Both the position numbers and the translations under genes were made by a program. Positions 9,990 through 59,141 of a stretch of 64,000 nucleotides of DNA are shown piece by piece. The notes beneath the pieces were generated by a model. The model was not told the DNA's origin, did no database searches, and saw only the letters and a program-made list of their open reading frames with translations. Positions within the stretch are counted from its first letter, which is position 1. Each line of letters opens with the position of its first letter. Location of the stretch: the IMG/VR virus record IMGVR_UViG_3300030108_003783, positions 1-64,000 of that record; one strand, given 5' to 3'. Origin of the DNA: a virus.

Positions 9990-9999
9990 GTTATATTTA
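9968..9999 (+). promoter_or_regulatory. Class A promoter upstream of bS21
   Basis: TTTG-GATAAGTC...(20-nt spacer)-TATATTTA. Confidence 0.7.
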
Positions 10000-29991: not shown

Positions 29992-30014
29992 GTCAAATAA
30001 ATTTCTTATATTAG
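29983..30014 (+). promoter_or_regulatory. Class A promoter (leaderless geometry)
   Basis: TTTC-GATAAGTC...N20-TATATTAG; ATG 4 nt later. Confidence 0.6.
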
Positions 30015-30018
30015 GAAT

Positions 30019-31047
30019 ATGAATATAAAACAGGTTACATTAGATAAAGAGAAAAAAGTGTGCGTTCATTCTTATATAAAGAATGGAAGGGTTATAGATT
30101 TAGATTCAATAAAAACATCAACTCATTTATTTTATCAAAGAATGTACTGGAATAGGCCAGATATTTTTGATATTATACCAAACTGCAAACATCGTGAATA
30201 TATAAATAGTTTAGATAAAAGCTTAGACAGTTTTGAATTATCAGAGTATGATATTAACATAGCACAAACTTACGAAAATCTGATTTTACCTTTATTTAAT
30301 AAAATAGAAGAAAATGGCTTATACACTAAAAATGGTTATGAACATTCCAAGTACAATTTATTTACTATTACTGGTAGACCATCAAATGCAAACAATGGTA
30401 TAAATTATGCCGCATTAAATAAAGCTGATGGCTCAAGGGAAAGGTTTACTAGTAGGTTTTCTAATGGCTTTTTATTAGAAATGGACTTTGATGCATATCA
30501 TATCAGATTGATTGCAGATTTAATAAATTATAAATTACCTGATTCTTCTGTTCATGAATACTTTGCAAAACAATTTTATGGTGTTACTTCTGTAACTAAA
30601 GAAGAATACGAACAATCTAAAGCAATGTCTTTTCAAGTTTTATATGGTGGTGTTCCAAAAGAATTGGAAGCAATAGAATATTTTAATAAAACTAAGCAGT
30701 ACATTTTTAAGCTTTGGGATAATTATAATTATAAGGGTTACATACAAACACCAGTATTCAATAGAAGGTTATATAAAAACAATCTGGAAAATATGAATCC
30801 TCAAAAGTTATTTAATTATTTAATACAAGCTTACGAAACTGAAAGGAACATTAAAGCAATAGAAAAAATTCATAATATCCTTAAAGGTTATAATTCTAAA
30901 TTAATCCTTTATACATACGATGCATTTTTATTTGATTGCGCAAAAGAAGAAATATCAATTATAAAAAATGAAATTGCAAACAATTTAGATTTTCCAGTTA
31001 AAATGCATGTAGGTAAGAACTACAATGATATGAAGCTTTTAACGTGA
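30019..31047 (+). CDS. Family A DNA polymerase domain, short and divergent, no exonuclease domains
   Basis: TITGRPSN, EMDFDAYHIRL (motif A), SKAMSFQVLYG (B), NYLIQ, YTYDAFLFD (C). Confidence 0.8.
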   Translation: MNIKQVTLDKEKKVCVHSYIKNGRVIDLDSIKTSTHLFYQRMYWNRPDIFDIIPNCKHREYINSLDKSLDSFELSEYDINIAQTYENLILPLFNKIEENGLYTKNGYEHSKYNLFTITGRPSNANNGINYAALNKADGSRERFTSRFSNGFLLEMDFDAYHIRLIADLINYKLPDSSVHEYFAKQFYGVTSVTKEEYEQSKAMSFQVLYGGVPKELEAIEYFNKTKQYIFKLWDNYNYKGYIQTPVFNRRLYKNNLENMNPQKLFNYLIQAYETERNIKAIEKIHNILKGYNSKLILYTYDAFLFDCAKEEISIIKNEIANNLDFPVKMHVGKNYNDMKLLT

Positions 31048-33467: not shown

Positions 33468-33528
33468 TATTTATATTAAAGGTTTTTGCCATTTTCTTTG
33501 GATATGTCAAAAATTTTTCTTATATTTA
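33466..33528 (+). promoter_or_regulatory. Tandem class B (33466-33475) and class A (33497-33528) promoter motifs
   Basis: GATATTTATA, then TTTG-GATATGTC...N20-TATATTTA. Confidence 0.65.
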
Positions 33529-33933: not shown

Positions 33934-33965
33934 TTTGGATAAGTCGAAAAAAATTATTATATTTA
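33934..33965 (+). promoter_or_regulatory. Class A promoter (leaderless geometry)
   Basis: TTTG-GATAAGTC...N20-TATATTTA; ATG 4 nt later. Confidence 0.7.
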
Positions 33966-36972: not shown

Positions 36973-37004
36973 TTTGGATATGTCAAAAAAATTTCTTATA
37001 TTTA
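36973..37004 (+). promoter_or_regulatory. Class A promoter
   Basis: TTTG-GATATGTC...N20-TATATTTA; nearly identical to the 33497 copy. Confidence 0.7.
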
Positions 37005-39497: not shown

Positions 39498-41357
39498 ATG
39501 GAAGTATCAAATCAAATATTATCAGAGATTACAGTTTATATGAAGTACGCAAAGTACTTACCAGAAAAAAATAGAAGAGAAACTTGGGAAGAGTTAGTAA
39601 CAAGAAATAAAGAAATGCATATAAAAACTTACCCGAAAATGAAAGAAGAAATAGAAGAAGCTTATAAACTAGTATACGATAAAAAAGTACTTCCATCTAT
39701 GAGATCATTACAGTTTGGTGGTAAACCAATAGAAATATCGCCTAATAGAATATACAATTGCGCTTATTTACCTATCGACTCTGTTGATTCATTTAGTGAA
39801 ACTATGTTTTTGTTGTTAGGTGGTACTGGCGTTGGTTATTCTGTACAAAGACATCACGTTGCAAAGCTGCCTGTAATAAATAAACCTTTTCCTAAAAGAT
39901 CAAGAAGATTTTTAATTGGAGACTCTATTGAAGGTTGGGCTGATGCAATAAAGGTGTTGATGAAATCTTATATGAATGGAGGAGGATCAAGAATAGAATT
40001 TGACTTTTCAGATATTAGACCAAAGGGAGCAAGACTAATAACGTCAGGTGGTAAAGCTCCAGGTCCACAACCATTAAAGGAATGTATATTAAAATTGACT
40101 GGTATTTTAGAATCAAAAGAAACTGGTGATAGAATAACAACATTAGAAGCTCACGATATGATTTGTCATATAGCCGATGCTGTTTTAGCTGGAGGTATTA
40201 GAAGAGCTGCTTTAATTAGTTTATTTAATGCAGATGATGATGCAATGATATCATGTAAATCGGGTAACTGGTGGGAATTAAACCCTCAACGAGGTAGAGC
40301 AAATAATTCAGCTGTACTAATGAGACACAAGATTACTAAAAAGTTCTTTTTAGATTTATGGGAAAGAGTTGAAAAGTCTGGTGCTGGTGAACCTGGTATT
40401 TATTTTAATAATGATAAAGATTGGGGAACTAATCCATGTTGTGAAATAGCATTAAGACCATTTCAATTTTGCAATTTATGCGAAGTAAATGCAAGTGATA
40501 TAAAAGATCAAGAAGATTTAAATAATCGTGTAAAAGCTGCATCATTAATTGGTACTTTACAAGCTGGTTATACTCAATTCCATTATCTTAGAGATATATG
40601 GAGAGAAACAACAGAGAAGGAAGCACTGATTGGAGTATCTATGACTGGTATTGGTTCTGGTACTGTTTTAGGTTATGATACAGAAGAAGCAGCAAAAGTT
40701 GTTAAAAAGGAAAATGCAAGAGTTGCAAAACTTCTAGAAATAAATAAAGCAGCTAGATGCACAACTGTTAAACCTGCTGGAACAACATCATTAGCTTTAG
40801 GAACATCATCAGGTATCCATGCATGGCATAACGATTATTATATAAGAAGAATAAGAGTTGGAAAGAATGAAACAATATATAATTATTTGAAAACGAATCA
40901 CCCTGAGTTAGTAGAAGATGAATACTTCAGACCTCATGATACTGCAGTAATTCAAATTCCTCAAAAAGCTCCAGCTGGTGCAATATTAAGAACAGAATCT
41001 CCATTCCAATTATTAGAAAGAGTAAAGAAAATAGCTACGGAATGGGTTAAGTCGGGTCACAGAAAGGGTTCTAATACTCACAACGTTTCAGCAACTATAT
41101 CATTGAAACAAGAAGATTGGGAATTAGCTGGTCAATGGATGTGGGAAAATAGAAAACACTATAACGGTTTATCAGTATTACCTTATGATGGTGGAACGTA
41201 TACTCAAGCACCATTTGAAGATATTACAAAAGAAAAATATGATGAAATGATGAAAACTTTAACAGAAGTTAATTTATCAAATGTTATAGAAGTAGAAGAT
41301 AATACAGATCTATCTGGAGAATTAGCTTGTGCAGGAGGTTCTTGTGAAATTACATAA
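39498..41357 (+). CDS. nrdJ: Class II (adenosylcobalamin-dependent) ribonucleotide reductase
   Basis: YNC, GGTGVG, RRAALI, TNPCCEI, QFCNLCE, VKPAGTTS, C-terminal CAGGSC; no small-subunit gene adjacent. Confidence 0.9.
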   Translation: MEVSNQILSEITVYMKYAKYLPEKNRRETWEELVTRNKEMHIKTYPKMKEEIEEAYKLVYDKKVLPSMRSLQFGGKPIEISPNRIYNCAYLPIDSVDSFSETMFLLLGGTGVGYSVQRHHVAKLPVINKPFPKRSRRFLIGDSIEGWADAIKVLMKSYMNGGGSRIEFDFSDIRPKGARLITSGGKAPGPQPLKECILKLTGILESKETGDRITTLEAHDMICHIADAVLAGGIRRAALISLFNADDDAMISCKSGNWWELNPQRGRANNSAVLMRHKITKKFFLDLWERVEKSGAGEPGIYFNNDKDWGTNPCCEIALRPFQFCNLCEVNASDIKDQEDLNNRVKAASLIGTLQAGYTQFHYLRDIWRETTEKEALIGVSMTGIGSGTVLGYDTEEAAKVVKKENARVAKLLEINKAARCTTVKPAGTTSLALGTSSGIHAWHNDYYIRRIRVGKNETIYNYLKTNHPELVEDEYFRPHDTAVIQIPQKAPAGAILRTESPFQLLERVKKIATEWVKSGHRKGSNTHNVSATISLKQEDWELAGQWMWENRKHYNGLSVLPYDGGTYTQAPFEDITKEKYDEMMKTLTEVNLSNVIEVEDNTDLSGELACAGGSCEIT

Positions 41358-41847: not shown

Positions 41848-41879
41848 TTTGGATAAGTCCAAAAAATTTGTTATATTTA
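41848..41879 (+). promoter_or_regulatory. Class A promoter (leaderless geometry)
   Basis: TTTG-GATAAGTC...N20-TATATTTA; ATG 4 nt later. Confidence 0.7.
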
Positions 41880-41883
41880 GTAT

Positions 41884-42402
41884 ATGATTACAATGATAGA
41901 AGGCCCACGTAATACGGGCAAAACACACTTATTAAAAGAGTCTGGAATTAAGGTTTATAAATTTCCATTTGCAAAATGGTACGATATACTTGACCTTGGC
42001 AGAGATAAGCTTGCTGCTAATGCTTTTGGCATGGGAAGATTAATGCTGCATGATTTATCTAATAATGGGTATATAGATAATATTATAACTGATAGAAGTA
42101 TAATATCGCCATTAGCTTGGGGTGTAATAGAAGGAAGAGTATCGCAAAAAGAATCTCATACTTTATTGATGCATATGATTCACGAAGGTATTTTAAATGC
42201 AGATGATAAAGTAATCTATGTTACTGGTGATAACCCAAATGGTAGAAGCAGAGGTGATCATTGGGATGATTCTGATTTTGAAATAGAATCTAAAATGTAT
42301 TATCATATAATGGAAACCTTAGATAAGTATCTAGGCAATGTAATAGAATTTGAAAATAAATTTGATAACCTTTCAACAGCATTATTTAAAAAATTATTAT
42401 GA
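41884..42402 (+). CDS. dNMP kinase-like P-loop protein
   Basis: IEGPRNTGKT and ITDRS, as in thymidylate-kinase-family proteins. Confidence 0.7.
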   Translation: MITMIEGPRNTGKTHLLKESGIKVYKFPFAKWYDILDLGRDKLAANAFGMGRLMLHDLSNNGYIDNIITDRSIISPLAWGVIEGRVSQKESHTLLMHMIHEGILNADDKVIYVTGDNPNGRSRGDHWDDSDFEIESKMYYHIMETLDKYLGNVIEFENKFDNLSTALFKKLL

Positions 42403-43148
42403 ATTTAATTTATCACCCTTCAATAGCAATAGAAAAATCTAAAGAAAAATTATATTCTTTAGGTCAAGAAGTATTCAGTGGAAAATGGCAATCAGTAGAC
42501 GTAGACCAATCTATGTGGGAATTATTTAATCACACTGTAAAATGTGCAATGCCTCAAACTGTAAAAGAAATGGTCAAAGAAATAAAACCTAATTTACCTT
42601 GGGCTGATGATCACTTTGAAGAAAGAATAGGGGGTAAACCTTTAAACCCACCACCAAGTAATGAATGGTGGCCTTTTGCTCAAAGAGGTAATAAGCAATT
42701 CAAAGCAGATGAAAAATTTTCTCATACTTATCCAGAAAGATTATGGCCACCATACAGAAAAGGTGTTAGATTTAATTATGGTTCTATGAATGATGTAATA
42801 GATTTATTGGAAAGAGAACCTTATACAAGGCAAGCATTTTTGCCAATATGGTACCCTGAAGATACTGGTGCTCATCATAAAGAAAGAGTTCCATGTACAA
42901 TAGGTTATCATTTTATCAGAAGAGATGATTGGTTACATTTATTTTACTTCATTCGTTCTTGTGATATAATAAGGCACTTCAGAGATGATATTTACATGGC
43001 AATGAGAAAAGCTAAATTTGTATTAGATGAATTAAAGAAAAGAAATAAAGAATGGGAAAATGTAAAACTTGGAATATATGATATGAAAATTATTTCATTA
43101 CATTGTTTCTCTAACGAAAAAGGAATATTAAAACAAAAAAATATATAG
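42399..43148 (+). CDS. Thymidylate-synthase-fold enzyme, probably a dCMP (hydroxy)methylase
   Basis: TRQA..PIW.PED, catalytic VPCT, RSCDIIRHFRDD, SLH. Confidence 0.75.
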   Translation: MNLIYHPSIAIEKSKEKLYSLGQEVFSGKWQSVDVDQSMWELFNHTVKCAMPQTVKEMVKEIKPNLPWADDHFEERIGGKPLNPPPSNEWWPFAQRGNKQFKADEKFSHTYPERLWPPYRKGVRFNYGSMNDVIDLLEREPYTRQAFLPIWYPEDTGAHHKERVPCTIGYHFIRRDDWLHLFYFIRSCDIIRHFRDDIYMAMRKAKFVLDELKKRNKEWENVKLGIYDMKIISLHCFSNEKGILKQKNI

Positions 43149-43157
43149 GAGAATAAA

Positions 43158-43595
43158 ATGAAATTTGCAAAAGTAAGAGATGTAAAAACACCAACAAGAG
43201 CTAATCCAACTGATGCTGGAATTGACTTTTTTGTACCAAATGATATGCCAATACATGAAATACGAAAAAACGAAAAAGCTTTAATTCCATCTGGTATAAA
43301 AGTTGATGTTCCTGAAGGTTTCGCTTTAATAGCATTTAATAAATCTGGCGTTGCAACAACTAGAGAATTACAAGTTGGAGCATGCGTAGTAGATTGCGGA
43401 TATCAAGGTGAAGTTCATTTTCATTTATTTAATTATGGCAAAAATACAGTTTATATCAATCCAGGAGATAAAATAGTTCAGTTTGTTTTATTACCATTAG
43501 GAGATCCAATTGTAGAAGAAGTTAAAGAATCTGAATTATATAATTCAATATCTTCAAGAGGAACTGGAGGTTTTGGTTCAACTGGGACAAAATAG
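43158..43595 (+). CDS. dut: Trimeric dUTPase
   Basis: AGIDF, NKSG, VVDCGYQGE, GDKIVQ, RGTGGFGSTG. Confidence 0.93.
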   Translation: MKFAKVRDVKTPTRANPTDAGIDFFVPNDMPIHEIRKNEKALIPSGIKVDVPEGFALIAFNKSGVATTRELQVGACVVDCGYQGEVHFHLFNYGKNTVYINPGDKIVQFVLLPLGDPIVEEVKESELYNSISSRGTGGFGSTGTK

Positions 43596-43606
43596 TTCTC
43601 AAAAAA

Positions 43607-43638
43607 TTTGGATAAGTCGAAAAAATTTCTTATATTAG
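43607..43638 (+). promoter_or_regulatory. Class A promoter
   Basis: TTTG-GATAAGTC...N20-TATATTAG. Confidence 0.7.
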
Positions 43639-43659
43639 TATATAATAAAAAAGTTACAT

Positions 43660-46095
43660 ATGAAAGTATCAAAAATAACATCAGTATTTAATAAAGGTAA
43701 ATATGATATATATTTATCTGGCTATGACGACAATGGTAAAAATGTAAAGAAAATTGAAAAGTTCGATGATTATTTCTTTTATGAAGCAGAAAACATTTCA
43801 GATATAGATGATTACCCAGGATTAAAATGTATCCCTGATAAAATCTATAAATCTGTTGAAGGTAAAGACTTATTAAAAGTTCATTATACTTCTGTTAAAA
43901 ATAAACATAAATTGCAAAAGAAATTTATCAAACGTACATATGAAGCAGATTTAAAACCTGAATTTAAATATATGCTTGATCAAAAATTGGAGTGGTCTTC
44001 AAAACGTCACTTCATGTATTTGGATATTGAAACATGGTATGATCCAAACGATTCATCTCAAAACAGACCTGAAACACCTAATATGCCAATTACTTCGATT
44101 GTTGCATATTCAAGTGAAGCTGATAAATATTTTGTATTTTCATGGCATCCTGAAAAAACTAAAAAGTTTGATGAACCAAAATTTGTTGACAAAGAAAACG
44201 TAACATACGTATTTTGTAAAACGGAACAAGAAGTATTATTAGGTTTTATAAACTTGATTAAAACAAGCAATCCAGATATTCTTTCTGGTTGGTATTCGTC
44301 AGGTTATGATATGCCTTATATATTAAATCGTTCTAAAAGATTAAATATTCCTATTGAAGAGATATCTGTTGTAAAAGATTATTACATCAGAAAGCGTGGT
44401 GATTATTGGAAATTTCAAATAAAAGGTTTAGACCATATAGATATGATGGAAGCTTTACAAGATTTAAAATATAATTTACCAAACTGGAAATTAGCAACAG
44501 CAGCTAAAGTTATTTTAAAAGATGAAGAATTTGGAAAGCTTACTGATACTACTTGGAAGAATTGGATTGATGATTACGAAGGCTTCTTAAAATATGCTGT
44601 TAGGGATGTTGAAATTTTAAAAGAAATAAATGAAAAAGTTCAAGTATTTGATTTATATATTTCAATGCAACAAATTGCAAACCTTGAAACATTAAATTTA
44701 GTATTCTTTAAATCAATGCTAATTGATAATTACATGTGCAAGGAATTTCATAATGAAACTATATTCCCAACAAGATATACTAAAAAGCGTAGAGACTATC
44801 AAGGTGCTATTGTTATTGAACCAACTGAACCGGGTTTAAATGAAAATGTAACTGTTATGGATTATACTTCACTATATCCAACAACTGTAATGGCATTTAA
44901 CATTTCACCTGAAACTTTTATATGCTCTCAAGAACAGTGCGAAAAAGCTGGTATGGATATCGAAGATGTAGTCAAGCAATTGAAAGCTGATAATATAGAT
45001 TACGTAGATACTGGATATTCTAAGGATCTTTTCGGAAGGAGGTATTTGTTTTATGGTCATACTCACAAAGTTGGTATTCTACCTCAAATACTTAAAAAGG
45101 TATTTGTACAAAGGGTTGAAATTAACCGGGCATTAAATGCAGGTGAAATTCCAGATGATCAATATGAAGCAATGCATAAAAGACAATGGTCATATAAAAT
45201 TATTATGAACAGTGCTTATGGTGCAATGGGATATTCACTTTTCAGAATGTGTTTATTTGAATGTGCTGATTCAACTACTTATTTTGCAAGGCAAGCTTTA
45301 AAATTTGGTTTAGTACATTTTAATAATAAAGGTCATAAACCGTTATATGCTGATACTGATTCTGTATTTATTAAATCTAATGGCAAAGATGAAAATGGTA
45401 TGAAAGGTATGCAAAAAGAATATAATGATTCTTTATATAATAATTTCGTTAAAAAGCATAATACAGGTCCAGTTAAAGATTACATGTTTTTAGATTTAAA
45501 ATTTGAATATTATCTTGATAGAATATACTTCGGTGATGTAAAGAAAAGATATTATGGTATTGTAAAAGGTTCTGGTAAAAAGGTTATTAGGGGTATGAAT
45601 ATTATTCGTAAAGAAACACCAGAGTATTTAAAGAAAAGGTTAAATGATATGGCTGAGTTAGCTGTTACTAATAAGTTAACATTGGATTGGGTATTAGATT
45701 TACGTAAAGAAGTTGAATCCCAGCCATATCAAAAAATAGGTATGGCCAAAGGCTTTGGTAAACCTTTTAATACTTATACTAAAACAATGCCTCAACATGT
45801 AAAAGCTGCTGTTTGGGCTAATGAAATATTAGGTACAGAATTAACAAATTTAGATAATCCATATTTATTTTATGTAAAATCTAAAATCGAAGATGATAAA
45901 AAAGTTAAAGAAAGGCATAAAGCTATTTGTATTAATGAAGATGATTTACATTTAATTGATACTAATAAAGATAAATTTGAAATTGATTACGATACTTTAT
46001 TTTATAAGCAATGTATTGTTCCTATTGAAGAATTTAAACAAATGCCATATATAGTAGATTTACTTGAAAAATATAATGAAACTATCAAGTCTTAA
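43660..46095 (+). CDS. Family B DNA polymerase with 3'-5' exonuclease
   Basis: LDIET, GWYS.GYDMPY, YAVRD, MDYTSLYP, KIIMNSAYG, YADTDS, KKRY. Confidence 0.95.
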   Translation: MKVSKITSVFNKGKYDIYLSGYDDNGKNVKKIEKFDDYFFYEAENISDIDDYPGLKCIPDKIYKSVEGKDLLKVHYTSVKNKHKLQKKFIKRTYEADLKPEFKYMLDQKLEWSSKRHFMYLDIETWYDPNDSSQNRPETPNMPITSIVAYSSEADKYFVFSWHPEKTKKFDEPKFVDKENVTYVFCKTEQEVLLGFINLIKTSNPDILSGWYSSGYDMPYILNRSKRLNIPIEEISVVKDYYIRKRGDYWKFQIKGLDHIDMMEALQDLKYNLPNWKLATAAKVILKDEEFGKLTDTTWKNWIDDYEGFLKYAVRDVEILKEINEKVQVFDLYISMQQIANLETLNLVFFKSMLIDNYMCKEFHNETIFPTRYTKKRRDYQGAIVIEPTEPGLNENVTVMDYTSLYPTTVMAFNISPETFICSQEQCEKAGMDIEDVVKQLKADNIDYVDTGYSKDLFGRRYLFYGHTHKVGILPQILKKVFVQRVEINRALNAGEIPDDQYEAMHKRQWSYKIIMNSAYGAMGYSLFRMCLFECADSTTYFARQALKFGLVHFNNKGHKPLYADTDSVFIKSNGKDENGMKGMQKEYNDSLYNNFVKKHNTGPVKDYMFLDLKFEYYLDRIYFGDVKKRYYGIVKGSGKKVIRGMNIIRKETPEYLKKRLNDMAELAVTNKLTLDWVLDLRKEVESQPYQKIGMAKGFGKPFNTYTKTMPQHVKAAVWANEILGTELTNLDNPYLFYVKSKIEDDKKVKERHKAICINEDDLHLIDTNKDKFEIDYDTLFYKQCIVPIEEFKQMPYIVDLLEKYNETIKS

Positions 46096-46115: not shown

Positions 46116-46156
46116 TTATACAAAATAAGTTATAAAATTAATAAATGGAGGTTAAC

Positions 46157-48062
<1,906 letters not shown>

Positions 48063-48295: not shown

Positions 48296-48327
48296 TTTGG
48301 ATAAGTCCAAAAAATTTGTTATATTAT
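48296..48327 (+). promoter_or_regulatory. Class A promoter (leaderless geometry)
   Basis: TTTG-GATAAGTC...N20-TATATTAT; ATG 3 nt later. Confidence 0.7.
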
Positions 48328-49486: not shown

Positions 49487-49518
49487 TTTGGATATGTCGT
49501 AAAAATTTGTTATATTAA
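49487..49518 (+). promoter_or_regulatory. Class A promoter (leaderless geometry)
   Basis: TTTG-GATATGTC...N20-TATATTAA; ATG 4 nt later. Confidence 0.7.
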
Positions 49519-50151: not shown

Positions 50152-51588
50152 ATGCAATTACCCAAGCTAAGCAGAGTTGTCAAAAGAAAGAAAAAAAAGA
50201 TTTTGCTATTATCTGATGATATGAGACTAAAGTCTGGCGTTGGAACAATGTCAAAAGAAATAATAAGAGGTACAGTAGATAAGTATGACTGGGTTCAAAT
50301 CGGAGGAGCACTCAATCACCCAGATGCAAACAAAGGCTTTTTTGATATATCTCAAGATGTAAAAAAGATGAGCGGAGTAGATGATGCAAGTGTAAAGATT
50401 TTACCAGTTGCTGGTTATGGTGATCCTCATGTCTTAAGAAATGTAATTAAACATGAAAAACCAGATGCAATTGTACATTTTACAGACCCAAGATTTTGGG
50501 GGTGGTTGTATAATATGGAACACGAAATAAGACAAAACATTCCAATTGGATATTTAAATATTTGGGACGATTTACCATTCCCTCATTGGAATGAAAATGC
50601 CTATGAATCATGCGATTTATTAATGGCTATTTCTAAACAAACTTATAATATAAATAAAAATGTTTGTCAAAGAAAACCAAGAACTAATTGGGACTTAACA
50701 TACGTTCAGCATGGTATAGATGAAAATATATTTAAACCGATAGACAAAACTGATCCAGAGTTTATAAAATTCAAAAGCGATATTTGTAAAAACAAGGAAT
50801 ACGACTTCATAGCATTTTTTAATTCTAGAAATATTAGAAGAAAATGCCCATCTGATTTAATTTTAGCTTTTTCAAAATTTTGTGATATGCTTCCAAAAGA
50901 AAAATCTGAAAAATGTTTACTCTTAATGCATACAGACCCAGTTGATCCTAATGGTACAGATTTACCAGCAGTAGCATCAGCTCTATGTAAAAATGCAGAA
51001 GTAAAATTTAGTGCACAAAAATTAGACGAAAAGAATTTAAATTTTATGTATAATTTAGTCGATTTATGTTGCAATCCATCTTCAGCTGAAGGTTTCGGTT
51101 TATCTCATATGGAAGCAATGATGTCAGGTACACCAACTATAGCAACTGTATTAGGAGGTTTACAAGATCAAATGGGATTCAAAATAGACGGAGAAGAGTT
51201 TAACGTTGACCACTTGACTTCGGAAATACCAAGTAATTCAACTGGAGAGTTATCAACTGATCACGGTTCTTGGACTTTACCATTATGGCCTCAAATGAAT
51301 TTGCAAGGTTCACCAGCAACACCTTACATTTATGATTCAAGAGCAAGTGTTAGTCAAATTGCAAATCAATTAAAAGTTTGGTATGACAGAGGAAATGATG
51401 ATAGAGAGAAAAGAGGATTAGAAGGAAGGAACTGGGCAATAGAAAATGGTTTTAATAATAAAGGTATGTGCAAAGCTTTCATCGATTCTATGGAGGGTTT
51501 ATTTGAAAATTGGAAACCAAGAGAAAGATTTACTTTAGAAAAAGTTGAAGAAAGTAAATGCATATATCCACAGGGAGAGTTAATATGA
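50152..51588 (+). CDS. GT-B (GT4-like) glycosyltransferase
   Basis: SGVG, HGID, RNIRRK, SAEGFGLSHMEAMMSGTP. Confidence 0.88.
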   Translation: MQLPKLSRVVKRKKKKILLLSDDMRLKSGVGTMSKEIIRGTVDKYDWVQIGGALNHPDANKGFFDISQDVKKMSGVDDASVKILPVAGYGDPHVLRNVIKHEKPDAIVHFTDPRFWGWLYNMEHEIRQNIPIGYLNIWDDLPFPHWNENAYESCDLLMAISKQTYNINKNVCQRKPRTNWDLTYVQHGIDENIFKPIDKTDPEFIKFKSDICKNKEYDFIAFFNSRNIRRKCPSDLILAFSKFCDMLPKEKSEKCLLLMHTDPVDPNGTDLPAVASALCKNAEVKFSAQKLDEKNLNFMYNLVDLCCNPSSAEGFGLSHMEAMMSGTPTIATVLGGLQDQMGFKIDGEEFNVDHLTSEIPSNSTGELSTDHGSWTLPLWPQMNLQGSPATPYIYDSRASVSQIANQLKVWYDRGNDDREKRGLEGRNWAIENGFNNKGMCKAFIDSMEGLFENWKPRERFTLEKVEESKCIYPQGELI

Positions 51589-52844
51589 GAAAGATATATA
51601 TAAGTTGTCCTGCAACATCTAGATCTGGTTATGGCGACCATTCAAGAGATTTAATTAGAAGTTTTATAGAAATAGATAATTCTCAAGTTACTATCATTGA
51701 TCAGAAATGGGGCGATTGTCCTCAAAACGCTTTAACAGCAAAAGATATAGATATCTCATCTAGGATATCACAAGATGGTAAGATTAAAGAAAAGCCTGAT
51801 ATTTGGGTTCAAATAACTGTACCAAATGAATTTCAACCCATAGGAAAATTTAATATAGGTATAACTGCTGGAATGGAAACAACAATGGTTTCACCAGAAT
51901 GGATAGATGGTATGAATAAAATGGACTTAAATATAGTTCCATCTAAACATTCAAAAGCAGTATTTGAAAATACAGTTTACGATAAGCATGATAAAAGAAC
52001 GAATCAAAAAGTTGGCACTTTAAAAGTTGAAAAACCTATAGAAGTAGTATTTGAAGGATCAGACTTAGAAGTTTATAAGAAAACTCAAGATATACCTGAA
52101 ACTATTAAAAAAGCTTTTTCAAACGTAAAAGAAGACTTTTGCTTCCTAACAGTTGGGCACTGGTTGCAAGGAGACTTTGGTCACGATAGAAAAGATCTCG
52201 GAACCACTATAAGATTATTCTGTGAAACATTTAAAAAGAAAGGTAATAAAAAGCCAGCATTAATTTTAAAAACTTCAGCAGCAGGTTTTTCAATAACTGA
52301 TAAAGAAGAAATGAAAAGGAAAATAAATGCAGTTTTAAAAGCTTGCAATTATTCTTGCAATGTTTATTTATTACACGGAGATCTAACTGACGAGGAAATG
52401 AATGGTTTATATAATCATCCTAAAGTAAAAGCAATGCTATCAATGACTCATGGTGAAGGGTATGGTAGACCATTACAAGAATTTTCAATAACTGGAAAAC
52501 CTACGATTGCTTCTAATTGGTCTGGCCAAACAGATTTTCTTTCAGAATACGGTTTGATGTTAGCTGGAGAATTAAAACAAGTTCATCAATCTGCAGTTTG
52601 GGATAAAGTTATATTAAAAGAATCTAAATGGTTTTATGCTGATATAAATTATACTTCAGCTGTTATTAGCGATGTATTTAAAAATTATAAAAAGCATTTA
52701 GAAAGAACTAGAAAACAAACTAAATACATAAAAGATAACTTTTCTTTAGCTGCAATGAATGATAAATTAAAAGAAGTTATTGAAAGAAATTATAATATAC
52801 CAGAAAAGGTTGAATTGAATTTACCAAAATTGGAGAAAATATAA
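51585..52844 (+). CDS. GT-B (GT4-like) glycosyltransferase
   Basis: SRSGYG, VPSKHS, DRKD, HGEGYGRPLQE; ATGA overlap start. Confidence 0.85.
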   Translation: MRKIYISCPATSRSGYGDHSRDLIRSFIEIDNSQVTIIDQKWGDCPQNALTAKDIDISSRISQDGKIKEKPDIWVQITVPNEFQPIGKFNIGITAGMETTMVSPEWIDGMNKMDLNIVPSKHSKAVFENTVYDKHDKRTNQKVGTLKVEKPIEVVFEGSDLEVYKKTQDIPETIKKAFSNVKEDFCFLTVGHWLQGDFGHDRKDLGTTIRLFCETFKKKGNKKPALILKTSAAGFSITDKEEMKRKINAVLKACNYSCNVYLLHGDLTDEEMNGLYNHPKVKAMLSMTHGEGYGRPLQEFSITGKPTIASNWSGQTDFLSEYGLMLAGELKQVHQSAVWDKVILKESKWFYADINYTSAVISDVFKNYKKHLERTRKQTKYIKDNFSLAAMNDKLKEVIERNYNIPEKVELNLPKLEKI

Positions 52845-53284
52845 TGAAAAAAGAAAACGAATGGATTAAAAGTCCAATAACAAATAGAGAAGAAGTTTTA
52901 ATGCACGAAGATCCAGCTGATGGAATTAGCAAAATGTGTATTGGTAGCGGTTTCTATACAAATGAAAACCCTTTAAATTATAAAAAGAATCCAGATTTTG
53001 ATATAGAAAAGTATGAATCTAAAATGCCAACTATATTGAAAGAGTTAAGATTTGATGATGGGGAATCTTATTGGTACCCATGCACAATATCTACAGCAAC
53101 AGCAATAGTATTTCCAGCTGGAACAAAGGAAGATTGGAAATGGTGCTATGCTGAGATAAAAGACCTTGAAGATCAAGTTGGAGATTATACAAGAAAATTA
53201 GATATTGAATCTGCTCAATACTTTGATAGATTTATTGAAGCAAGTAAACAAATAAATGGGTACAATTTAGATGAATTATCTTAA
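52844..53284 (+). CDS. Hypothetical protein
   Basis: 146-aa ORF, TAATG-coupled. Confidence 0.6.
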   Translation: MKKENEWIKSPITNREEVLMHEDPADGISKMCIGSGFYTNENPLNYKKNPDFDIEKYESKMPTILKELRFDDGESYWYPCTISTATAIVFPAGTKEDWKWCYAEIKDLEDQVGDYTRKLDIESAQYFDRFIEASKQINGYNLDELS

Positions 53285-53708
53285 CGAACATAGATATAAA
53301 TCTGAAGGTTTGCAAAGAGTCTCAACTTCGGGATTAGAAAAGGGTATGATAGTTTCTTGTAGATACACTAATAAAAAGGGAAGATCAAAGTCTCTTTTCA
53401 TATTAATTTTGAATCCTGGTTATGAAGGAAAAGTTCATGCAATAACCTTAGAAAAATTTTCACCTAAAGATTTAAATGGCTTAGCTGGTAAAGTTGGCGT
53501 TAGATTAATACCAAAATTTAGTGTAAGAGGTTTGAATTTCCCTAAGCTTGAAATGATCCAATCGTCTAGAAGATTTTATGGATCATTTTTAAGAAATATA
53601 AGAGATAAGTACGATGATTGTTATAGAACATATTTTACTAATAAACTTACAACAACATTCGTAGTAGATTATAAATTTGACGAAGATATAGAAAAGTTTT
53701 TACAATGA
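53271..53708 (+). CDS. Hypothetical protein
   Basis: 145-aa ORF overlapping both neighbours. Confidence 0.6.
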   Translation: MNYLNEHRYKSEGLQRVSTSGLEKGMIVSCRYTNKKGRSKSLFILILNPGYEGKVHAITLEKFSPKDLNGLAGKVGVRLIPKFSVRGLNFPKLEMIQSSRRFYGSFLRNIRDKYDDCYRTYFTNKLTTTFVVDYKFDEDIEKFLQ

Positions 53709-54142
53709 ATAAAATTATTACAGGTTTCACAGCAGGGAATTTTGATTTATTACATCCTGGATATATAATTACATTTGAGGAAGCAAAAAGGCATTGTGAT
53801 AGGTTTTTAGTTTTTTTACAAGATGATCCATCATTACATAGAAAATCAAAATATAAACCAGTTATACCATTGTACGATAGATACAGAGCTTTAATGTCTA
53901 TAAAATATATAGATGGAGTTTACACTTATCAGACTGAAGAAGAGTTATACGAGCTTATAAAGTTTTGGAAACCAGAAATAAGAATACTTGGTGAAGATTA
54001 TATTGGGAAACCTTTTACTGGTGATGACTTACCACCAAAGGTTATTTATACTTCAAGGTCTCATAAGTGGTCAACAACTAAATTAAAAGATTTGATAACT
54101 AGACAAACTATCAAACAAAACCCGGAGATATTTAAAAAATGA
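53705..54142 (+). CDS. TagD-like cytidylyltransferase
   Basis: GNFDLLHPGY (HxGH variant), LGEDY, STTKLK. Confidence 0.8.
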   Translation: MNKIITGFTAGNFDLLHPGYIITFEEAKRHCDRFLVFLQDDPSLHRKSKYKPVIPLYDRYRALMSIKYIDGVYTYQTEEELYELIKFWKPEIRILGEDYIGKPFTGDDLPPKVIYTSRSHKWSTTKLKDLITRQTIKQNPEIFKK

Positions 54143-54765
54143 AAATAAGTTACGCAATAACAGTATGCAATGAGCATAAAGAAATAGAAAAATTATTAAC
54201 ATTTTTATTTGAACACAAAAGAAAAGAGGATCAAGTCGTAGTTCAAATGGATATGAATGCAACTGAAGAAGTTATTAATATATGCGAAAAGTTTGAAAGT
54301 AAACCTATATCAGAATATAGTTTGAATCAATTTGCATTAAATAAAAATTTCGCATCATATAAAAACAATCTAAATAAAAATTGTAATGGAAATTGGATAT
54401 TTCAAATAGATGCAGATGAAATACCTAATGAATATTTAATCGAAGCTCTTCCGTTTATATTAGAAACTAATCCTGATATTGAAGCCTATTGGGTACCTAG
54501 AGTAAATACAGTTGCAGGTATAACTGATGAACATATTGCTAAATGGGGATGGAGATTAAATGAAGATGGCTGGGTAAACTTTCCAGATTGGCAAATGAGA
54601 ATATATAAAAATGATAAAAATATATATTGGATAAAACCAGTTCATGAACAATTGAAAGGATATACTAAATTTGCAAATTTACCAGCTGAAGAAAAATTTG
54701 CTTTATATCATCCAAAGGATATTGGAAGACAAGAAAAGCAAAATGCATTTTATGAAACGATATAA
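54139..54765 (+). CDS. GT-A (GT2-like) glycosyltransferase
   Basis: ISYAITVCNE, NFA..KN, IDADE, VPRVN, VHE. Confidence 0.85.
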   Translation: MKISYAITVCNEHKEIEKLLTFLFEHKRKEDQVVVQMDMNATEEVINICEKFESKPISEYSLNQFALNKNFASYKNNLNKNCNGNWIFQIDADEIPNEYLIEALPFILETNPDIEAYWVPRVNTVAGITDEHIAKWGWRLNEDGWVNFPDWQMRIYKNDKNIYWIKPVHEQLKGYTKFANLPAEEKFALYHPKDIGRQEKQNAFYETI

Positions 54766-54776
54766 GGAATAGAATT

Positions 54777-55424
54777 ATGGCAAATGGAATTTATAAAGTA
54801 ACAGAACAATTTGAAGAGAGACTTGCATCTTATACGGGAGCTAGATATGCAGTTACAGTTGACAATATGAGTAATGGCTTGTTCTTAGCTTTATATTACG
54901 AAAAAAATATTGCAAAATCAATAAAAGAAGATTTTGTGACAATACCTAATAGAACATATCCATCTGTTCCATGTGAAATTATACATGCAGGTTTAAAAGT
55001 AAAATGGAAAAAGTTAAAAAGTAAAACGTTAACTGGTGCTTATAAATTAGAAGGTTCAAATATTTGGGATTCGGCTTTAAGATTTACTCATAATATGTAT
55101 AAACCAAAAACTCATATGTGCCTTTCATTTACTGGCCCATATAAAACTTTCAAACTTAGTAAAGGTGGTTGCATATTAACAGATGATCATGAAGCTTATC
55201 TTTGGTTTAAGAGAGCTAGATTTAGTGGAAGGAGAGAATGTTCATATGAAGATGACAATTTTGATATGCTTGGTTGGAACTTTTATATGATGCCAGAATT
55301 AGCCGCAAGAGGTTTACTTTTAATGAATCAATTTTACAATATAGATGGAACTCCAAAAAAGAACAAAGATATAACTCATACTTATCCAGATTTGAGTAAA
55401 TTTGAAATTTATAATAAGTCATGA
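54777..55424 (+). CDS. DegT/DnrJ-like PLP sugar aminotransferase, short form
   Basis: FEE.LA.YTGA.YAV, DSA, LSF..PYK....KGG..LTDD, GWNFYM. Confidence 0.8.
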   Translation: MANGIYKVTEQFEERLASYTGARYAVTVDNMSNGLFLALYYEKNIAKSIKEDFVTIPNRTYPSVPCEIIHAGLKVKWKKLKSKTLTGAYKLEGSNIWDSALRFTHNMYKPKTHMCLSFTGPYKTFKLSKGGCILTDDHEAYLWFKRARFSGRRECSYEDDNFDMLGWNFYMMPELAARGLLLMNQFYNIDGTPKKNKDITHTYPDLSKFEIYNKS

Positions 55425-56065
55425 AAATAGCAATAATGCAACCTTACTTTGTGCCCTATTTGGGATATTTTCAATTGATCAATGAAGTAGATATATTCGT
55501 TTTTTATGACGACGTTAATTTTATTAATAGAGGTTGGATAAATAGAAATACTATAACTATGAATAACGAAATAAAAAGATTCACTGTGCCTCTTATAAAG
55601 TCTAGTCAAAATAAAAAGATAAATGAAATTGATGTTAATTGGGATAGTAAAGAAATTAATAAGTTATTAAAAACTTTCAGATACAATTTAAAAGGTAAAT
55701 CAAAAGCTATAAAAATAATAGAATCTATCTTTGAAGATAAACCAAAAAGCATTTCAGATATGGCAATTCAATCAATCAAATACTTTTGCAAAGAACTAGG
55801 TATTAAAACTAAATTTGAAAAATCTTCTGAGATAGAGTATAAAAAATCTGAAGATAAATTGTTAAACTTAGTTAATATATGCAAAAGTAAAAATATATCT
55901 AATTATGTAAATGCAGAAGGTGGGCATAAATTGTATACAAAGAAAGATTTTAAGGCTAATGGTATAGATTTGAAATTTCTAAAGGGAACGCCATCTACAT
56001 CAATTTTAGATATAATAGATTCTAAAGATATAAAAGAGAGATTACTTAATTATGAAACAATATAA
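55421..56065 (+). CDS. WbqC-like protein
   Basis: IMQPYFVPYLGYFQLI...D.FVFYDDVNF...GWINRN, Y.NA.GG..LY. Confidence 0.88.
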   Translation: MKIAIMQPYFVPYLGYFQLINEVDIFVFYDDVNFINRGWINRNTITMNNEIKRFTVPLIKSSQNKKINEIDVNWDSKEINKLLKTFRYNLKGKSKAIKIIESIFEDKPKSISDMAIQSIKYFCKELGIKTKFEKSSEIEYKKSEDKLLNLVNICKSKNISNYVNAEGGHKLYTKKDFKANGIDLKFLKGTPSTSILDIIDSKDIKERLLNYETI

Positions 56066-56831
56066 TAAAATATGCACAATAGATATGAGCAAGTCTTCTA
56101 AAAGTATATTAGAGGAATTGCAGCCAGTTTGGGGTAAGTTCAAAGCATATCATATTGAAAACGTAAATACCAAAGATTTTGAAAAAGAATACGAGGAAGC
56201 AGCAGAAAAATTAGGTGAAATTAGATTATGCCATCCTGTCAATGATAAAAGTACAGAATTTTCAAAGTCAAGAGATATAAAGTACAATCCAGAAATATAT
56301 CATTACTTTGCTTCTAATACTAGGCAACCATTGCATACAGATTATGCTTACTATCACGAGACAGAAAGTCCTGATTGGTTAATGTTATATTGCATGCAAC
56401 CTTCAGAATATGGCGGTAAAACTCACTTGCTGTCTACAGAGTCTTTGATTTCTATATTGAAAAAATATAATCCAAAACTTTTAGAAGATATAAAAGTAGA
56501 TGTTACTTGGAAATATAATGGAAAAGATGGAGACAAAATTCATAAAAAACCTATACTAGAAGGTCATAAAATAAATTGGAATTATTGGCAAATAAAAGAA
56601 GAATTAAATACACCAGAGGTAATGAAAATCAGAGAAGAATTTTTTACATTCTTAGAGAAAGTTATTGTTGATGGTTGTATGTATGACTTCTCAAAGATTT
56701 GGAAACCTGGAGACTGTATAATTTTTAATGACAAATTTACTTTGCATGGAAGAGATGCTTTCTTAGGTCAAAGATGGCTAAAAGATCATGCATTTTATTC
56801 AAAACAAAAAGAAAGGATGTATCATATATGA
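56052..56831 (+). CDS. TauD/clavaminate-synthase-like 2OG-Fe(II) dioxygenase
   Basis: PLHTD, LMLYC, GGKT, WKPGD.IIFND...LHGR, RWL. Confidence 0.85.
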   Translation: MKQYNKICTIDMSKSSKSILEELQPVWGKFKAYHIENVNTKDFEKEYEEAAEKLGEIRLCHPVNDKSTEFSKSRDIKYNPEIYHYFASNTRQPLHTDYAYYHETESPDWLMLYCMQPSEYGGKTHLLSTESLISILKKYNPKLLEDIKVDVTWKYNGKDGDKIHKKPILEGHKINWNYWQIKEELNTPEVMKIREEFFTFLEKVIVDGCMYDFSKIWKPGDCIIFNDKFTLHGRDAFLGQRWLKDHAFYSKQKERMYHI

Positions 56832-58501
56832 AATACGTAATATGGGTAGATAGTTACAGATCAAATAGTGGTGGTATTGCTGTATTGCATAAGTTAGGAC
56901 AGAAACTTCAAGAGAAAGGTTGCAGTGTATATATGTATTCACCTAAAAGTTTACCAGGATTAAATCTGATAGATAACTATGGTGTTGAAAGAATAAAAGA
57001 TGAAGCTTGGATAATATATCCAGAAATAGTAATAGGTAATCCTTTAAATGCTAAAAATGTAATCAGGTGGGTTTTAAATAGTCCTGGATATATTGGAGGC
57101 GATTCAAATACTTGGGGTAACAATGATTTAGTATATTCTATAGGTGATTATTTCAAAATAGACAAGTCAATAAATGTAGAAGGTTATCTGAAGATTTGGG
57201 ACTTTAAGCTTGATTATTGGAAAGATGAAAATTTGGAAAGGTCTATCGATACTCATCTTATTAGAAAAGCAAAAGATAGAGCTGGTTCTAAAAAGAATGC
57301 AACTTTTGATATGCACTCTAAAGATTCTATTTGTTTAGATGGAGATATTGCAAATGACTTTTCAAAATTAAAAGAAAAATTAAATCAGACAAAAACTTTT
57401 ATTAGCTATGACTCAGCTACATACTATTCAACAATTGCAGCATTATGCGGAGCAATATCAGTTGTAATACCAGATGGAAAAAATAGCAAAGAAGAATATA
57501 AAAGAAAATTCCCTTTATGTAAATATGGAGTTGCTTGGGGCTTAGACGATATTCAATGGGCAATAGATACAAAAGATAAAGTAAGACCTCACTTAGAAGA
57601 TATGGAAAAAGAATCCGATGATCTTTTAGATGAATTTATATTAAACACTTCAAAAGCAAAATTGTTTTTAAGAACAGCAAACAACAAAATCTTTTCAGCT
57701 GGTGAAGTATACAAATTAGGATTTCCAATTGAAGAACCTTTTTATATACCAAAAGAATACATTGAATCTAAAGAATATACAATATTAAGAACATGTCATG
57801 GCCTTGGAGATTGGGGTATTATTTCTTCTTTACCTAGAAAATTGAAAGAAGCATATCCTAATTGCAAAGTAAATATTCCATCGCCTAAATTACTTAGTGA
57901 ATTGTTCAAGGGTCACGAAGAAAGATGGTCTTCATGGGATAACCCTTTCAATGTAGTTAAAACTATATTTGATAATAATCCTTATGTTGATAATTACATA
58001 GACAGCTTTCAAGGTGAAATTTACAATGATCATTATCATATTTACGATGGAACAAAAGATGAACCTTTAGCAAAACAAATTCTAAGGTTTTGGAGAGTAA
58101 AAGATTTAAGTAATATACAACCAGAAATATATTGGACAAAAGATGAAGAAGAAAAAGCAAATGAAATTATAAAAAATAATCTTGGTGATGAATTTGGTTC
58201 TTTAATGTTATCTAATAGATTCAATAATGAAAGCATTGATACTATTCAATCTATATTAAATGATCAAAATTTACCTATAGCTTATTGGACTTCATCAGAA
58301 AATCATGGATTAGTATTTGACAAAAAATTAGATTTAAAAGATATAGATATAAGAATTCAATTGCTAATAAGATCCAAGGGCAAATTTACAGTTGGCAATC
58401 AATCTGGAGCTGTAGACGTTTTACCTAGGTACACTAAAACTTTTATTTTACCTAGAACTAAATTAAGAAGTAACATAATAGATGGAGCATATTATATATG
58501 A
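56828..58501 (+). CDS. Two-domain putative glycosyltransferase
   Basis: SGG..VLHKL, YPEI..GNP, SYD...Y....AALCG; second domain HGLGD...NNPYVD (GT9-like); ATGA start. Confidence 0.6.
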   Translation: MKYVIWVDSYRSNSGGIAVLHKLGQKLQEKGCSVYMYSPKSLPGLNLIDNYGVERIKDEAWIIYPEIVIGNPLNAKNVIRWVLNSPGYIGGDSNTWGNNDLVYSIGDYFKIDKSINVEGYLKIWDFKLDYWKDENLERSIDTHLIRKAKDRAGSKKNATFDMHSKDSICLDGDIANDFSKLKEKLNQTKTFISYDSATYYSTIAALCGAISVVIPDGKNSKEEYKRKFPLCKYGVAWGLDDIQWAIDTKDKVRPHLEDMEKESDDLLDEFILNTSKAKLFLRTANNKIFSAGEVYKLGFPIEEPFYIPKEYIESKEYTILRTCHGLGDWGIISSLPRKLKEAYPNCKVNIPSPKLLSELFKGHEERWSSWDNPFNVVKTIFDNNPYVDNYIDSFQGEIYNDHYHIYDGTKDEPLAKQILRFWRVKDLSNIQPEIYWTKDEEEKANEIIKNNLGDEFGSLMLSNRFNNESIDTIQSILNDQNLPIAYWTSSENHGLVFDKKLDLKDIDIRIQLLIRSKGKFTVGNQSGAVDVLPRYTKTFILPRTKLRSNIIDGAYYI

Positions 58502-59139: not shown

Positions 59140-59141
59140 AT

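Follow-up and report, generated by a model that had tools for sequence, protein, structure and literature searches.

Phages make altered pyrimidines with enzymes of the thymidylate synthase (TS) family to escape host nucleases. That strategy is already known; the locus described here represents a separate branch of the enzyme family, with an active-site signature of its own. The locus lies in IMG/VR virus record IMGVR_UViG_3300030108_003783, a record of 133,730 bases that is estimated to be 77% complete and whose first 64 kb (64,000 nucleotides) are hereafter called the window, and it encodes a divergent TS-like protein of 249 amino acids whose gene overlaps that of a small P-loop kinase.

The hydroxymethylcytosine pathway of T4 comprises the dCMP hydroxymethylase gp42, the deoxynucleoside monophosphate (dNMP) kinase gp1, the dCTPase/dUTPase gp56 and the deaminase cd. 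The TS-like protein shares with gp42 the catalytic cysteine (Cys166, corresponding to Cys148), an aspartate at the specificity site (Asp197, corresponding to Asp179), a common F-R-(N/D)-D stretch and the absence of the C-terminal tail of TS, and hhalign aligns the two with a probability of 95% over 196-219 columns; the phage, like T4, has a dedicated kinase, a deaminase in its genome and a B-family polymerase. Unlike gp42, it carries Arg for Asp145, Gln for Arg124', His at Gly175 and, in an alignment of low confidence, Asn opposite Glu60. Unlike T4, it has a kinase that is thymidylate-kinase-like rather than gp1-like and a trimeric dUTPase in place of gp56, with no dCTPase found, and no T4-type DNA glucosyltransferase was identified in this genome.

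Two further groups of enzymes share the aspartate. MilA, the CMP 5-hydroxymethylase of mildiomycin synthesis (PDB 5b6d, 5jnh), also has Arg at the Leu172 site, as the protein described here does; it differs in having Asp at the Leu143 site and a glutamate, Glu68 (PMC6400193; this and the other papers marked with a dagger are cited from the part of their text that was available†), in its length of 316-342 amino acids, in its origin in a bacterial antibiotic cluster and in its preference for CMP. The flavin-dependent 5-hydroxy-dCMP synthases (AfhB of phage HY126, RB69 gp48 and DLP3 gp80) are likewise short and tail-less, with Asp at the Asn177 site, and the AfhB group works with a cognate kinase; AfhB aligns with the protein described here at a VIA Z of 20.1, and RB69 gp48 at an hhalign probability of 96%. 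The D169N exchange of that group is nevertheless missing, and Arg stands where the AfhB group has Glu at the Leu143 site.

The dCMP methylases of the Xp12/PaMx74 type combine, as this phage does, an N177D-type enzyme with a gene of the dCMP-deaminase family in one genome, but the protein described here has neither Leu143 nor the C-terminal tail. It is matched weakly by Xanthomonas, Stenotrophomonas and Pseudomonas AAT-1 records, with E values of 0.04 to 2 and a query coverage of 39-58%.

From such enzymes rules have been drawn that so far allowed the product to be predicted from positions 177, 143 and 169 (E. coli ThyA numbering). N177D signifies preference for dCMP (PMC13326640†; also PMC8670742†), and Asp179/Asn177 is agreed to be the substrate determinant (PMC8670742†, PMC6400193†); at position 143, Leu as against Asp or Glu tracks methyl as against hydroxymethyl products, and D169N is the mark of the flavin-dependent 5-hydroxy-dCMP synthases (both PMC13326640†). 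In addition, Glu60 is described as conserved in all TS, CMP hydroxymethylase and dCMP hydroxymethylase (dCH) enzymes, and dCH as being without the C-terminal tail of TS (PMC6400193†). The clade to which the TS-like protein belongs breaks this scheme: it has the cytosine-type Asp and no product signature.

Fold and active site of the TS-like protein

Against PF00303 the protein scores 22.1 bits (9.5e-5), below the cut-off of 24.3 and over residues 125-191 only, while some other members of its clade clear the cut-off with up to 44.2 bits. Its best NCBIfam match, to a methanogen-type TS model (1.2e-9), falls far below the cut-off of that model. Because its PF00303 value is 9.5e-5, the protein would fail the IMG/VR screen of preprint 10.1101/2024.12.05.627091†, which required PF00303 at 1e-7.

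The predicted structure (pLDDT 94.6, pTM 0.92, from an input alignment of 44 sequences) was matched by Foldseek to MilA (E 9e-13, TMq 0.73), with TS and AfhB close (up to E 1e-10). VIA alignment gave Z of 19.4-20.5 and a root-mean-square deviation of 2.5-3.5 Å over 202-228 residues to the ThyA of several species, to AfhB (9iqc, 9iqu) and to MilA, the scores of the three being tied within one Z unit; model residues 8-249 match residues 1-222/223 of the 264 of E. coli ThyA. The chain ends 14 residues after His235, and the C-terminal tail, which in TS covers the folate during hydride transfer, is absent. The protein is thus predicted to have a TS fold over its full length, in agreement with the first-pass annotation of this DNA, which had recognised a TS-fold enzyme and proposed profile and structure comparison as the check. 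Searches of the ESM Atlas returned family-level names only.

When a profile of the family was compared with the PDB the top ranks were taken by cytosine-acting enzymes: MilA (1.1e-10), the N229D mutant of Lactobacillus casei TS (2.4e-8) and AfhB (3.3e-8). That MilA is the best match both by profile and by Foldseek raises the possibility that the enzyme has another substrate or a role outside DNA synthesis: CMP, as in the nucleoside-antibiotic pathway of MilA, a modified uracil nucleotide, or some small-molecule pathway. Tyr209, which contacts the 3'-OH of the sugar, is Phe237 here and Phe in most family members, as would suit such a role. The tie between MilA, ThyA and AfhB in the VIA alignments (Z 19.7-20.5) speaks against it, as does the position of the gene, which lies among replication genes in this phage (ribonucleotide reductase, kinase, dUTPase, polymerase) and beside polymerases or deaminases in others. 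We consider a role of this kind very unlikely.

Residues were mapped by profile alignment (hhalign) to E. coli ThyA, T4 gp42 and RB69 gp48. Asp197 falls opposite the specificity residue in every alignment made: by hhalign it corresponds to N177 of ThyA, D179 of gp42 and D194 of gp48, and the same placement is given by phmmer against the L. casei N229D mutant (1njc) and by the family profile against MilA, 1njc and AfhB (9iqu/9iqc). The motif in which it lies, RSCDIIRHFRDD, begins with R186 at 42954 and ends with D197 at 42987-42989; the first-pass annotation had read in it an aspartate at the specificity site of Asn177 and a histidine for the usual glycine, and on both counts it was right (Gly173 corresponds to His193). 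Many residues of the TS active site are kept, namely Cys166 (C146), Tyr111 (Y94), Trp91 (W83), Arg144 (R126'), His235 (H207) and, in the R-S-x-D motif for phosphate and pterin, Arg186, Ser187 and Asp189 (R166, S167 and D169). Those that are changed are Asn177 to Asp197, Leu143 to Arg163, Gly173 to His193, Arg127' to Gln145, His147 to Thr167 and Tyr209 to Phe237.

Conservation was assessed over 194 sequences: besides the window protein these were 150 representatives from the library and 43 genes left from IMG/VR after dereplication. Denominators vary with the position. Asp is found at the position of Asp197 in 179 of 180 members, the single exception being a fragment of 138 amino acids, and Cys at that of Cys166 in all 185 of 185. 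Since both are so nearly invariant, the Asp at the specificity site is, on this comparison, not a chance occurrence. Nor are the unusual residues peculiar to one lineage: Arg163 occurs in 185/186 members, Gln145 in 181/188 and His193 in 168/180, alongside Arg186 (180/181), Ser187 (174/181) and Asp189 (178/180), and the signature is identical across all genomic contexts examined.

Set against the product rules, the TS-like protein has the Asp of dCMP-preferring enzymes, a residue at the Leu143 site that is neither Leu nor acidic, and a retained Asp169. Because it agrees with the N177D rule alone, and with neither the position-143 nor the D169N rule, the enzyme as judged from its residues is outside every assayed class. 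It is not of the 5-hydroxy-dCMP synthase type, because Asp169 is kept (Asp189, where RB69 gp48 has Asn186), and it lacks the methylase signature, because Arg163 occupies the Leu143 site. The features of canonical ThyA are missing as well: it has Asp197 rather than Asn, Arg163, Gln145 and Thr167 for Leu143, Arg127' and His147, and no C-terminal tail.

A viral clade and its coexistence with ThyA

A search of the whole library with the TS-like protein gave 803 matches with E values no higher than 1e-3, and 136 with values no higher than 1e-30. In IMG/VR at least 570 stretches encode relatives, and under the 1e-3 threshold 129 records of cultured phages match too, including Muddy gp46; the hosts of these phages are most often Gordonia (72), the remainder being Mycobacterium, Clostridium, Serratia, Streptomyces, Brevundimonas and others. 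The genes of Muddy (gp46) and of Gordonia, Streptomyces, Serratia, Brevundimonas and Yersinia phages belong to the same clade, with 35-46% identity over 86-100% and the same signature. By comparison, a scan for one peptide pattern among representative genomes of 185,579 cellular species found 10 loci, all on contigs of metagenome-assembled genomes (MAGs). The contrast between 570 or more stretches in IMG/VR and 10 contigs from MAGs makes the clade, on the evidence of these searches, virus-restricted. It is also common, and its routine label is thymidylate synthase, the name given in nearly all of the 129 cultured-phage records.

Some members are long (327-636 amino acids). These contain intein or LAGLIDADG insertions, or extensions without any other Pfam match, and on those grounds functional fusions were ruled out. 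The gene is thus a repeated target of mobile insertion: the long form P0001 carries an intein, and of 22 long forms that were scanned at least 12 contain LAGLIDADG endonuclease domains; other long members include P0019, P0045 and P0047.

If the annotation as thymidylate synthase were correct, the protein would be a very divergent but true TS that converts dUMP to dTMP. Besides the label itself, this explanation can call on the fact that the gene is the only one of TS fold in this record, flanked by a dUTPase and a thymidylate-kinase-like kinase and with a dCMP-deaminase homologue elsewhere, which is the classical set leading from dUMP to dTDP. It would require, however, that a TS dispense almost invariably with Asn177, together with Leu143 and Arg127, with the C-terminal tail and, it appears, with Glu58, and that the clade be practically absent from cellular genomes.

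The two kinds of enzyme also co-occur. Nineteen IMG/VR records of more than 100 kb that carry the clade were inspected, together with three cultured phages. Full-length ThyA is present in 15 of the 19 (121.9-324.7 bits), including all five records that are at least 90% complete, and the motif R-S-x-D-x-x-L-G-x-P-F-N, with Asn, was found in 13 of the 14 ThyA regions fetched, the fourteenth ending at a contig edge; of the cultured phages, KimJongPhill carries ThyX. Because ordinary ThyA coexists with it in 15/19 large relatives, the clade enzyme is, as far as gene content tells, not a spare dTMP synthase but one that works beside a true dTMP synthase in most lineages. A true TS is the least probable of the explanations considered here.

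In the lineage of the window itself the picture differs. The first-pass annotation saw no canonical thyA or thyX in the window, and none is present in the whole 133,730-base record either: it contains no other match to ThyA and no match to ThyX. This makes room for a bypass in which the enzyme methylates dCMP and the dCMP-deaminase homologue of the phage converts the resulting 5-methyl-dC nucleotides to thymidine nucleotides, a route proposed for phages of the Xp12 type, so that mainly dTTP and little or no modified cytosine would result; the deaminases linked to N177D-type TS have been proposed to supply dTTP from 5-methyl-dCTP (10.1101/2024.12.05.627091†). A deaminase in this genome (in-operon in the relatives L021 and L036), the thymidylate-kinase-like nature of the kinase and a genome of about 70% A+T (G+C of the window about 30%) all fit. 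The chemistry does not fit as well, for the clade has no C-terminal tail, which is needed for the reductive, methyl-forming step (PMC6400193†), and has Arg in place of Leu143; the TS homologues of Xp12-like phages match weakly, as noted above, and the bypass would be redundant in most other lineages, where Asn-type ThyA coexists. We regard it as decidedly unlikely.

Substrate, product and DNA incorporation

The explanation that we prefer, and to which we give about an even chance, is that the TS-fold enzyme produces a dCMP modified at C5, which may be 5-hydroxymethyl-dCMP and would be incorporated into DNA. Most likely the enzyme would take dCMP and not dUMP. Cys166 would attack C6, Asp197 would read and protonate the 4-amino pyrimidine, and a one-carbon or other group would be added at C5. 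The coupled kinase would then phosphorylate the product, a host kinase would make the triphosphate, and PolB, the presumed user of the nucleotide pool, would put the modified nucleotide into phage DNA, where it may serve against restriction.

Our best guess for the product is 5-hydroxymethyl-dCMP. It is favored because the C-terminal tail of TS is absent and because of the neighbors of the gene in one relative, L014, whose TS-like protein is 63% identical to that of the window: three genes upstream lies a carbamoyltransferase of 557 amino acids (L014 3054-4727), of a kind that acts on 5-hydroxymethylcytosine (PMC8670742†), and directly downstream a fused FkbM-methyltransferase/GT34 protein (L014 6793-8334). 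The C5-modified cytidylate proposed in the first-pass annotation is upheld in part: the TS fold, the cytosine-type Asp, the coupled thymidylate-kinase-like kinase, the restriction of the clade to viruses, the coexistence with ThyA elsewhere and the gp56-like and dCMP-deaminase homologues beside the gene in cultured phages agree with it, whereas the protein carries none of the three product signatures.

A number of observations weigh against modification of cytosine, or against a hydroxymethyl product in particular. The mark of the hydroxymethylases is missing, the Leu143 site being Arg163 and not Asp or Glu in 185/186 members, and the T4-based hhalign alignment places the Glu58/Glu60 site at Asn65 (Asn or Asp in the family), albeit in a stretch of low confidence with an invariant Glu75 nearby; in that same stretch the folate-Glu motif reads N-L-P-W, where T4 has E-L-E-W and E. 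coli has E-L-L-W. The folate-activating Glu thus appears from the alignment to be replaced by Asn, and together with the Arg at position 143 this apparent loss disfavors a hydroxymethyl product. In the lineage of the window, ThyA and ThyX were found in 0 of 7 records, all of them incomplete (16-80%; this one at 77%, that of the nearest relative, L011, at 80%, and five fragments at 16-56%), and the argument from a second enzyme beside a real TS is therefore borrowed from other lineages. The 133.7-kb record contains no dCTPase of gp56/MazG type, the neighbor being a plain trimeric dUTPase, and the combination of dUTPase, dCMP-deaminase homologue, NT5C nucleotidase and thymidylate-kinase-like kinase would suit a uracil/thymine pathway too. 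Palindromes that contain C are under-represented, with observed/expected ratios of 0.24 for GGATCC, 0.31 for GGTACC, 0.70 for CATG and 0.76 for GATC (both strands counted; a weak proxy for modification), which is mild evidence against full protection or full replacement of cytosine. Finally, we found no published assay of any member of the clade, although the TS homologues assayed in the MetaGPA papers (PMC8670742, 10.1101/2024.12.05.627091) could include some; the paper on phage P744 (PMC11269248) makes no mention of restriction, modif, thymidylate or digest.

Some of these same observations would be expected if the clade were a functional class of its own, acting on dCMP with another co-substrate or another way of activating folate, to add a C5 group that has not been described and that is elaborated in sister lineages by an amidotransferase. 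The TS superfamily has already yielded a flavin-dependent hydroxylase (PMC13326640†), and the clade possesses invariant residues that have no counterpart in TS, dCH or AfhB (Arg163, His193, Gln145, W68, E75, R76, N83, P84 and E113), besides the Asn aligned to the folate-activating Glu. The neighbors of the gene are suggestive as well. We surveyed 81 loci, dereplicated to 44 (<90% identity), with a Pfam scan of 101 of the 188 representatives of neighbor clusters. An AsnB-like amidotransferase gene (PF00733, 2.9e-41; L021 4641-6014) lies between the kinase and TS-like genes in L015, L021 and L036, and a TIM-barrel gene resembling IMPDH/GMP reductase (PF00478, 1.4e-43) immediately precedes the TS-like gene in 10 of the 44 dereplicated loci (L062, L063, L066-L068, L070, L072, L078 and L083 among them). 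On the other side, the N-terminal alignment that removes the Glu is of low confidence and E75 might substitute for it; and retention of Trp91 and of Asp189, equivalent to the pterin-binding Asp169, fits the use of folate, as does the Arg that the folate-using MilA likewise has at its Leu172 site. A new chemistry on dCMP is in our judgement unlikely, if less so than the other alternatives.

The same low probability applies to a more specific form of this idea, that the virus-only clade is a further class of the TS superfamily that installs an undescribed C5 group on dCMP, with a nitrogen-bearing form in the sisters that have the AsnB-like gene and the group used as it is in the window phage. 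Were it true, hundreds of uncultured and more than 100 cultured phages, the therapeutic phage Muddy included, would carry an unknown DNA base. What the product is matters for how such phages are sequenced, cloned and used in therapy, and establishing it would correct a widespread annotation.

The coupled kinase and the genomic setting

The features of the locus are listed in Table 1. The genes run from a class II ribonucleotide reductase (RNR) through the 172-residue P-loop kinase, the 249-residue TS-like protein, dUTPase and PolB to GroES/GroEL. The stop of the kinase gene and the start of the TS-like gene overlap as ATGA at 42399-42402, read directly from the sequence, so that the coupling reported in the first-pass annotation stands.

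Table 1. Features of the locus and further pathway genes of the record (positions are those of the window unless marked genome).
Feature	Position	Strand	Basis and remarks
Class II (B12-type) ribonucleotide reductase	39498..41357	+	PF02867, PF21995, PF17975; upstream neighbor, position kept in lineage
Promoter-like motif copy before kinase	41850..41877	+	one of nine + strand copies in the window
Thymidylate-kinase-like P-loop nucleotide kinase, 172 amino acids	41884..42402	+	phrog_761 'thymidylate kinase' 5.1e-4; predicted structure
Predicted TS-fold enzyme, 249 amino acids, divergent virus-restricted clade	42399..43148	+	phrog_160 4.4e-23; predicted structure
Motif R186 to D197 with substrate-specificity Asp	42954..42989	+	open reading frame coordinates; several alignments
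Trimeric-type dUTPase, 145 amino acids, last gene of three-gene unit	43158..43595	+	PF00692 73.2 bits (cut-off 22)
Second promoter-like motif copy, upstream of PolB	43609..43636	+	motif pattern search
Family-B DNA polymerase (PolB), 811 amino acids	43660..46095	+	PF00136 126.7 bits; PF03104 53.2 bits; phrog_262 7.6e-99
NUDIX hydrolase	genome 77160-77663		weak match
dCMP-deaminase homologue	genome 82716-83195		PF00383 1.3e-23; 5e-61 to in-operon deaminase of L036
NT5C nucleotidase	genome 90731-91210		1e-43 to NT5C of L054

The kinase has 15 homologues, all metagenomic, and a P-loop that reads GPRNTGKT. Profile matches are weak (phrog_761 5.1e-4; TIGR00041 0.039; a thymidylate kinase structure 0.61), and curated cut-offs are not reached: TIGR00041 gives 13.7 bits against 83.25, and the one Pfam match is AAA_14 at 18 bits. 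With the structural model (pLDDT 77.4, residues 28-49 unreliable) as query, Foldseek found thymidylate kinases as well as deoxynucleoside kinases (E 1.8e-5 to 3e-4, TMq 0.53-0.64), and the look-alikes of the kinase in the ESM Atlas are small clusters of viral nucleotide kinases. An EGPxxxGKT P-loop is common to it and to the 'thymidylate kinase' gp49 of Muddy (hhalign probability 92.7%, 25 columns); comparison with T4 gp1 revealed no homology (hhalign probability 0.4%, 16 columns). A dNMP kinase is a reasonable reading of the model. The first-pass annotation had called the product a divergent dNMP kinase, and of this the P-loop and the nucleoside-monophosphate-kinase fold by Foldseek are in accord, while the curated profile scores fall short. 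Its substrate may be the product of the TS-like enzyme, as the ATGA coupling suggests.

A motif of 28 bases, TGGATAAGTC..AAAAAATTT.TTATATT, occurs nine times on the + strand of the window (9970-9997, 29985-30012, 33499-33526, 33936-33963, 36975-37002, 48298-48325 and 49489-49516, besides the two copies of Table 1), where 0.46 occurrences are expected; none of 100 shuffled controls reached nine. All nine copies are situated in gaps before early or replication-type genes. A generic scan of the window for sigma-70-type promoters gave no enrichment (49 found, 43.5 expected). Since copies precede both the kinase and PolB, the kinase, TS-like and dUTPase genes form one unit and PolB is separate. Of the single class A promoter that the first-pass annotation had put before these genes, the recurrent motif ahead of the kinase thus remains, with a copy of its own for PolB.

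The dUTPase (phrog_135 8.9e-36; TIGR00576 95.5 bits, just below the cut-off of 102.55) is encoded 3' of the TS-like gene in all 6 of 6 dereplicated loci of the window's lineage, and the order RNR, kinase, TS-like, dUTPase, PolB, GroES is kept in the window, L009 and L013, in all three of which the AsnB-like insertion is absent. The deaminases of L021 and L036 lie downstream of the dUTPase. In other lineages the TS-like gene follows a metallophosphoesterase or the IMPDH/GMP-reductase-like gene mentioned above, or precedes an NT5C nucleotidase (L054, L059) or a deaminase and PolA (four loci).

Muddy, Yersinia phage P744 and KimJongPhill have the order kinase, a gene labelled dUTPase or MazG, an open reading frame (ORF) of about 280-350 codons, TS-like, deaminase, PolA, with deaminase homologues in all three. 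Their 'dUTPase' and 'MazG' genes are homologues of T4 gp56 (Muddy gp48, L006 3572-4030, 3.5e-8; P744 ORF026, L007 3528-4187, 4.2e-5; KimJongPhill gp76, L008 3190-3873, 5.5e-6), and the ORF immediately preceding the TS-like gene bears the name 'pyrimidine hmase synthase' in the annotation of P744. The window genome is unlike these cultured relatives in that a six-frame search of it (phmmer, E up to 1) detected no homologue of this upstream partner (Muddy gp47, P744 ORF027, KimJongPhill gp77). AsnB-like, carbamoyltransferase and other neighbor families gave no match in the genome beyond NT5C, the deaminase and a weak NUDIX; DHFR, MazG/PRA-PH and DNA methyltransferase were not found by Pfam in 155 of the 160 ORFs, the scan leaving aside five short ones.

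The source virus is an uncultured marine phage, and its Pfam markers (gp20 portal, gp23 capsid, sheath, gp19 tube, gp32, a RecA/UvsX-like protein and the family-B polymerase) are those of a distant T4-like myovirus. PolB is 22-26% identical to the polymerases of T4-like phages and of haloarchaeal tailed viruses, and the capsid protein comes closest to its counterparts in Microcystis phage Mel-JY01 (50.8%) and Flavobacterium phage 'immuto' (48.9%). A host among the Bacteroidota is plausible because the genome encodes, beyond the window at 67074-70247 (L002 4074-7247), a protein of 1057 amino acids with a C-terminal type-IX-secretion sorting domain (PF18962, 1e-9). A sorting domain of this type is also found near the TS-like gene in L053.

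Of the 160 ORFs called, 155 lie on the + strand. The GroES/GroEL pair follows PolB directly (46145-48062; PF00166 3.5e-22, PF00118 4.8e-75), and the position of GroES is kept in the lineage. Alongside the full PolB there is an ORF of 342 amino acids at 30019-31047 that represents no more than the C-terminal part of a family-A DNA polymerase (PF00476, 3.2e-12), and a copy of the promoter-like motif stands just before a homologue of ribosomal protein S21 (10035-10370; PF01165, 5.3e-13). Towards the end of the window, at 50152-63210, a 13-kb island of sugar genes contains two GT4 and two GT2 glycosyltransferases, a cytidylyltransferase, a fragment of a DegT aminotransferase, WbqC, a TauD dioxygenase, a methyltransferase, an epimerase and a UDP-glucose dehydrogenase; its products could modify the surface of the host or, speculatively, a hydroxylated base in the DNA. 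In the relatives L014, L023 and L052, genes of sugar type lie directly after the TS-like gene.

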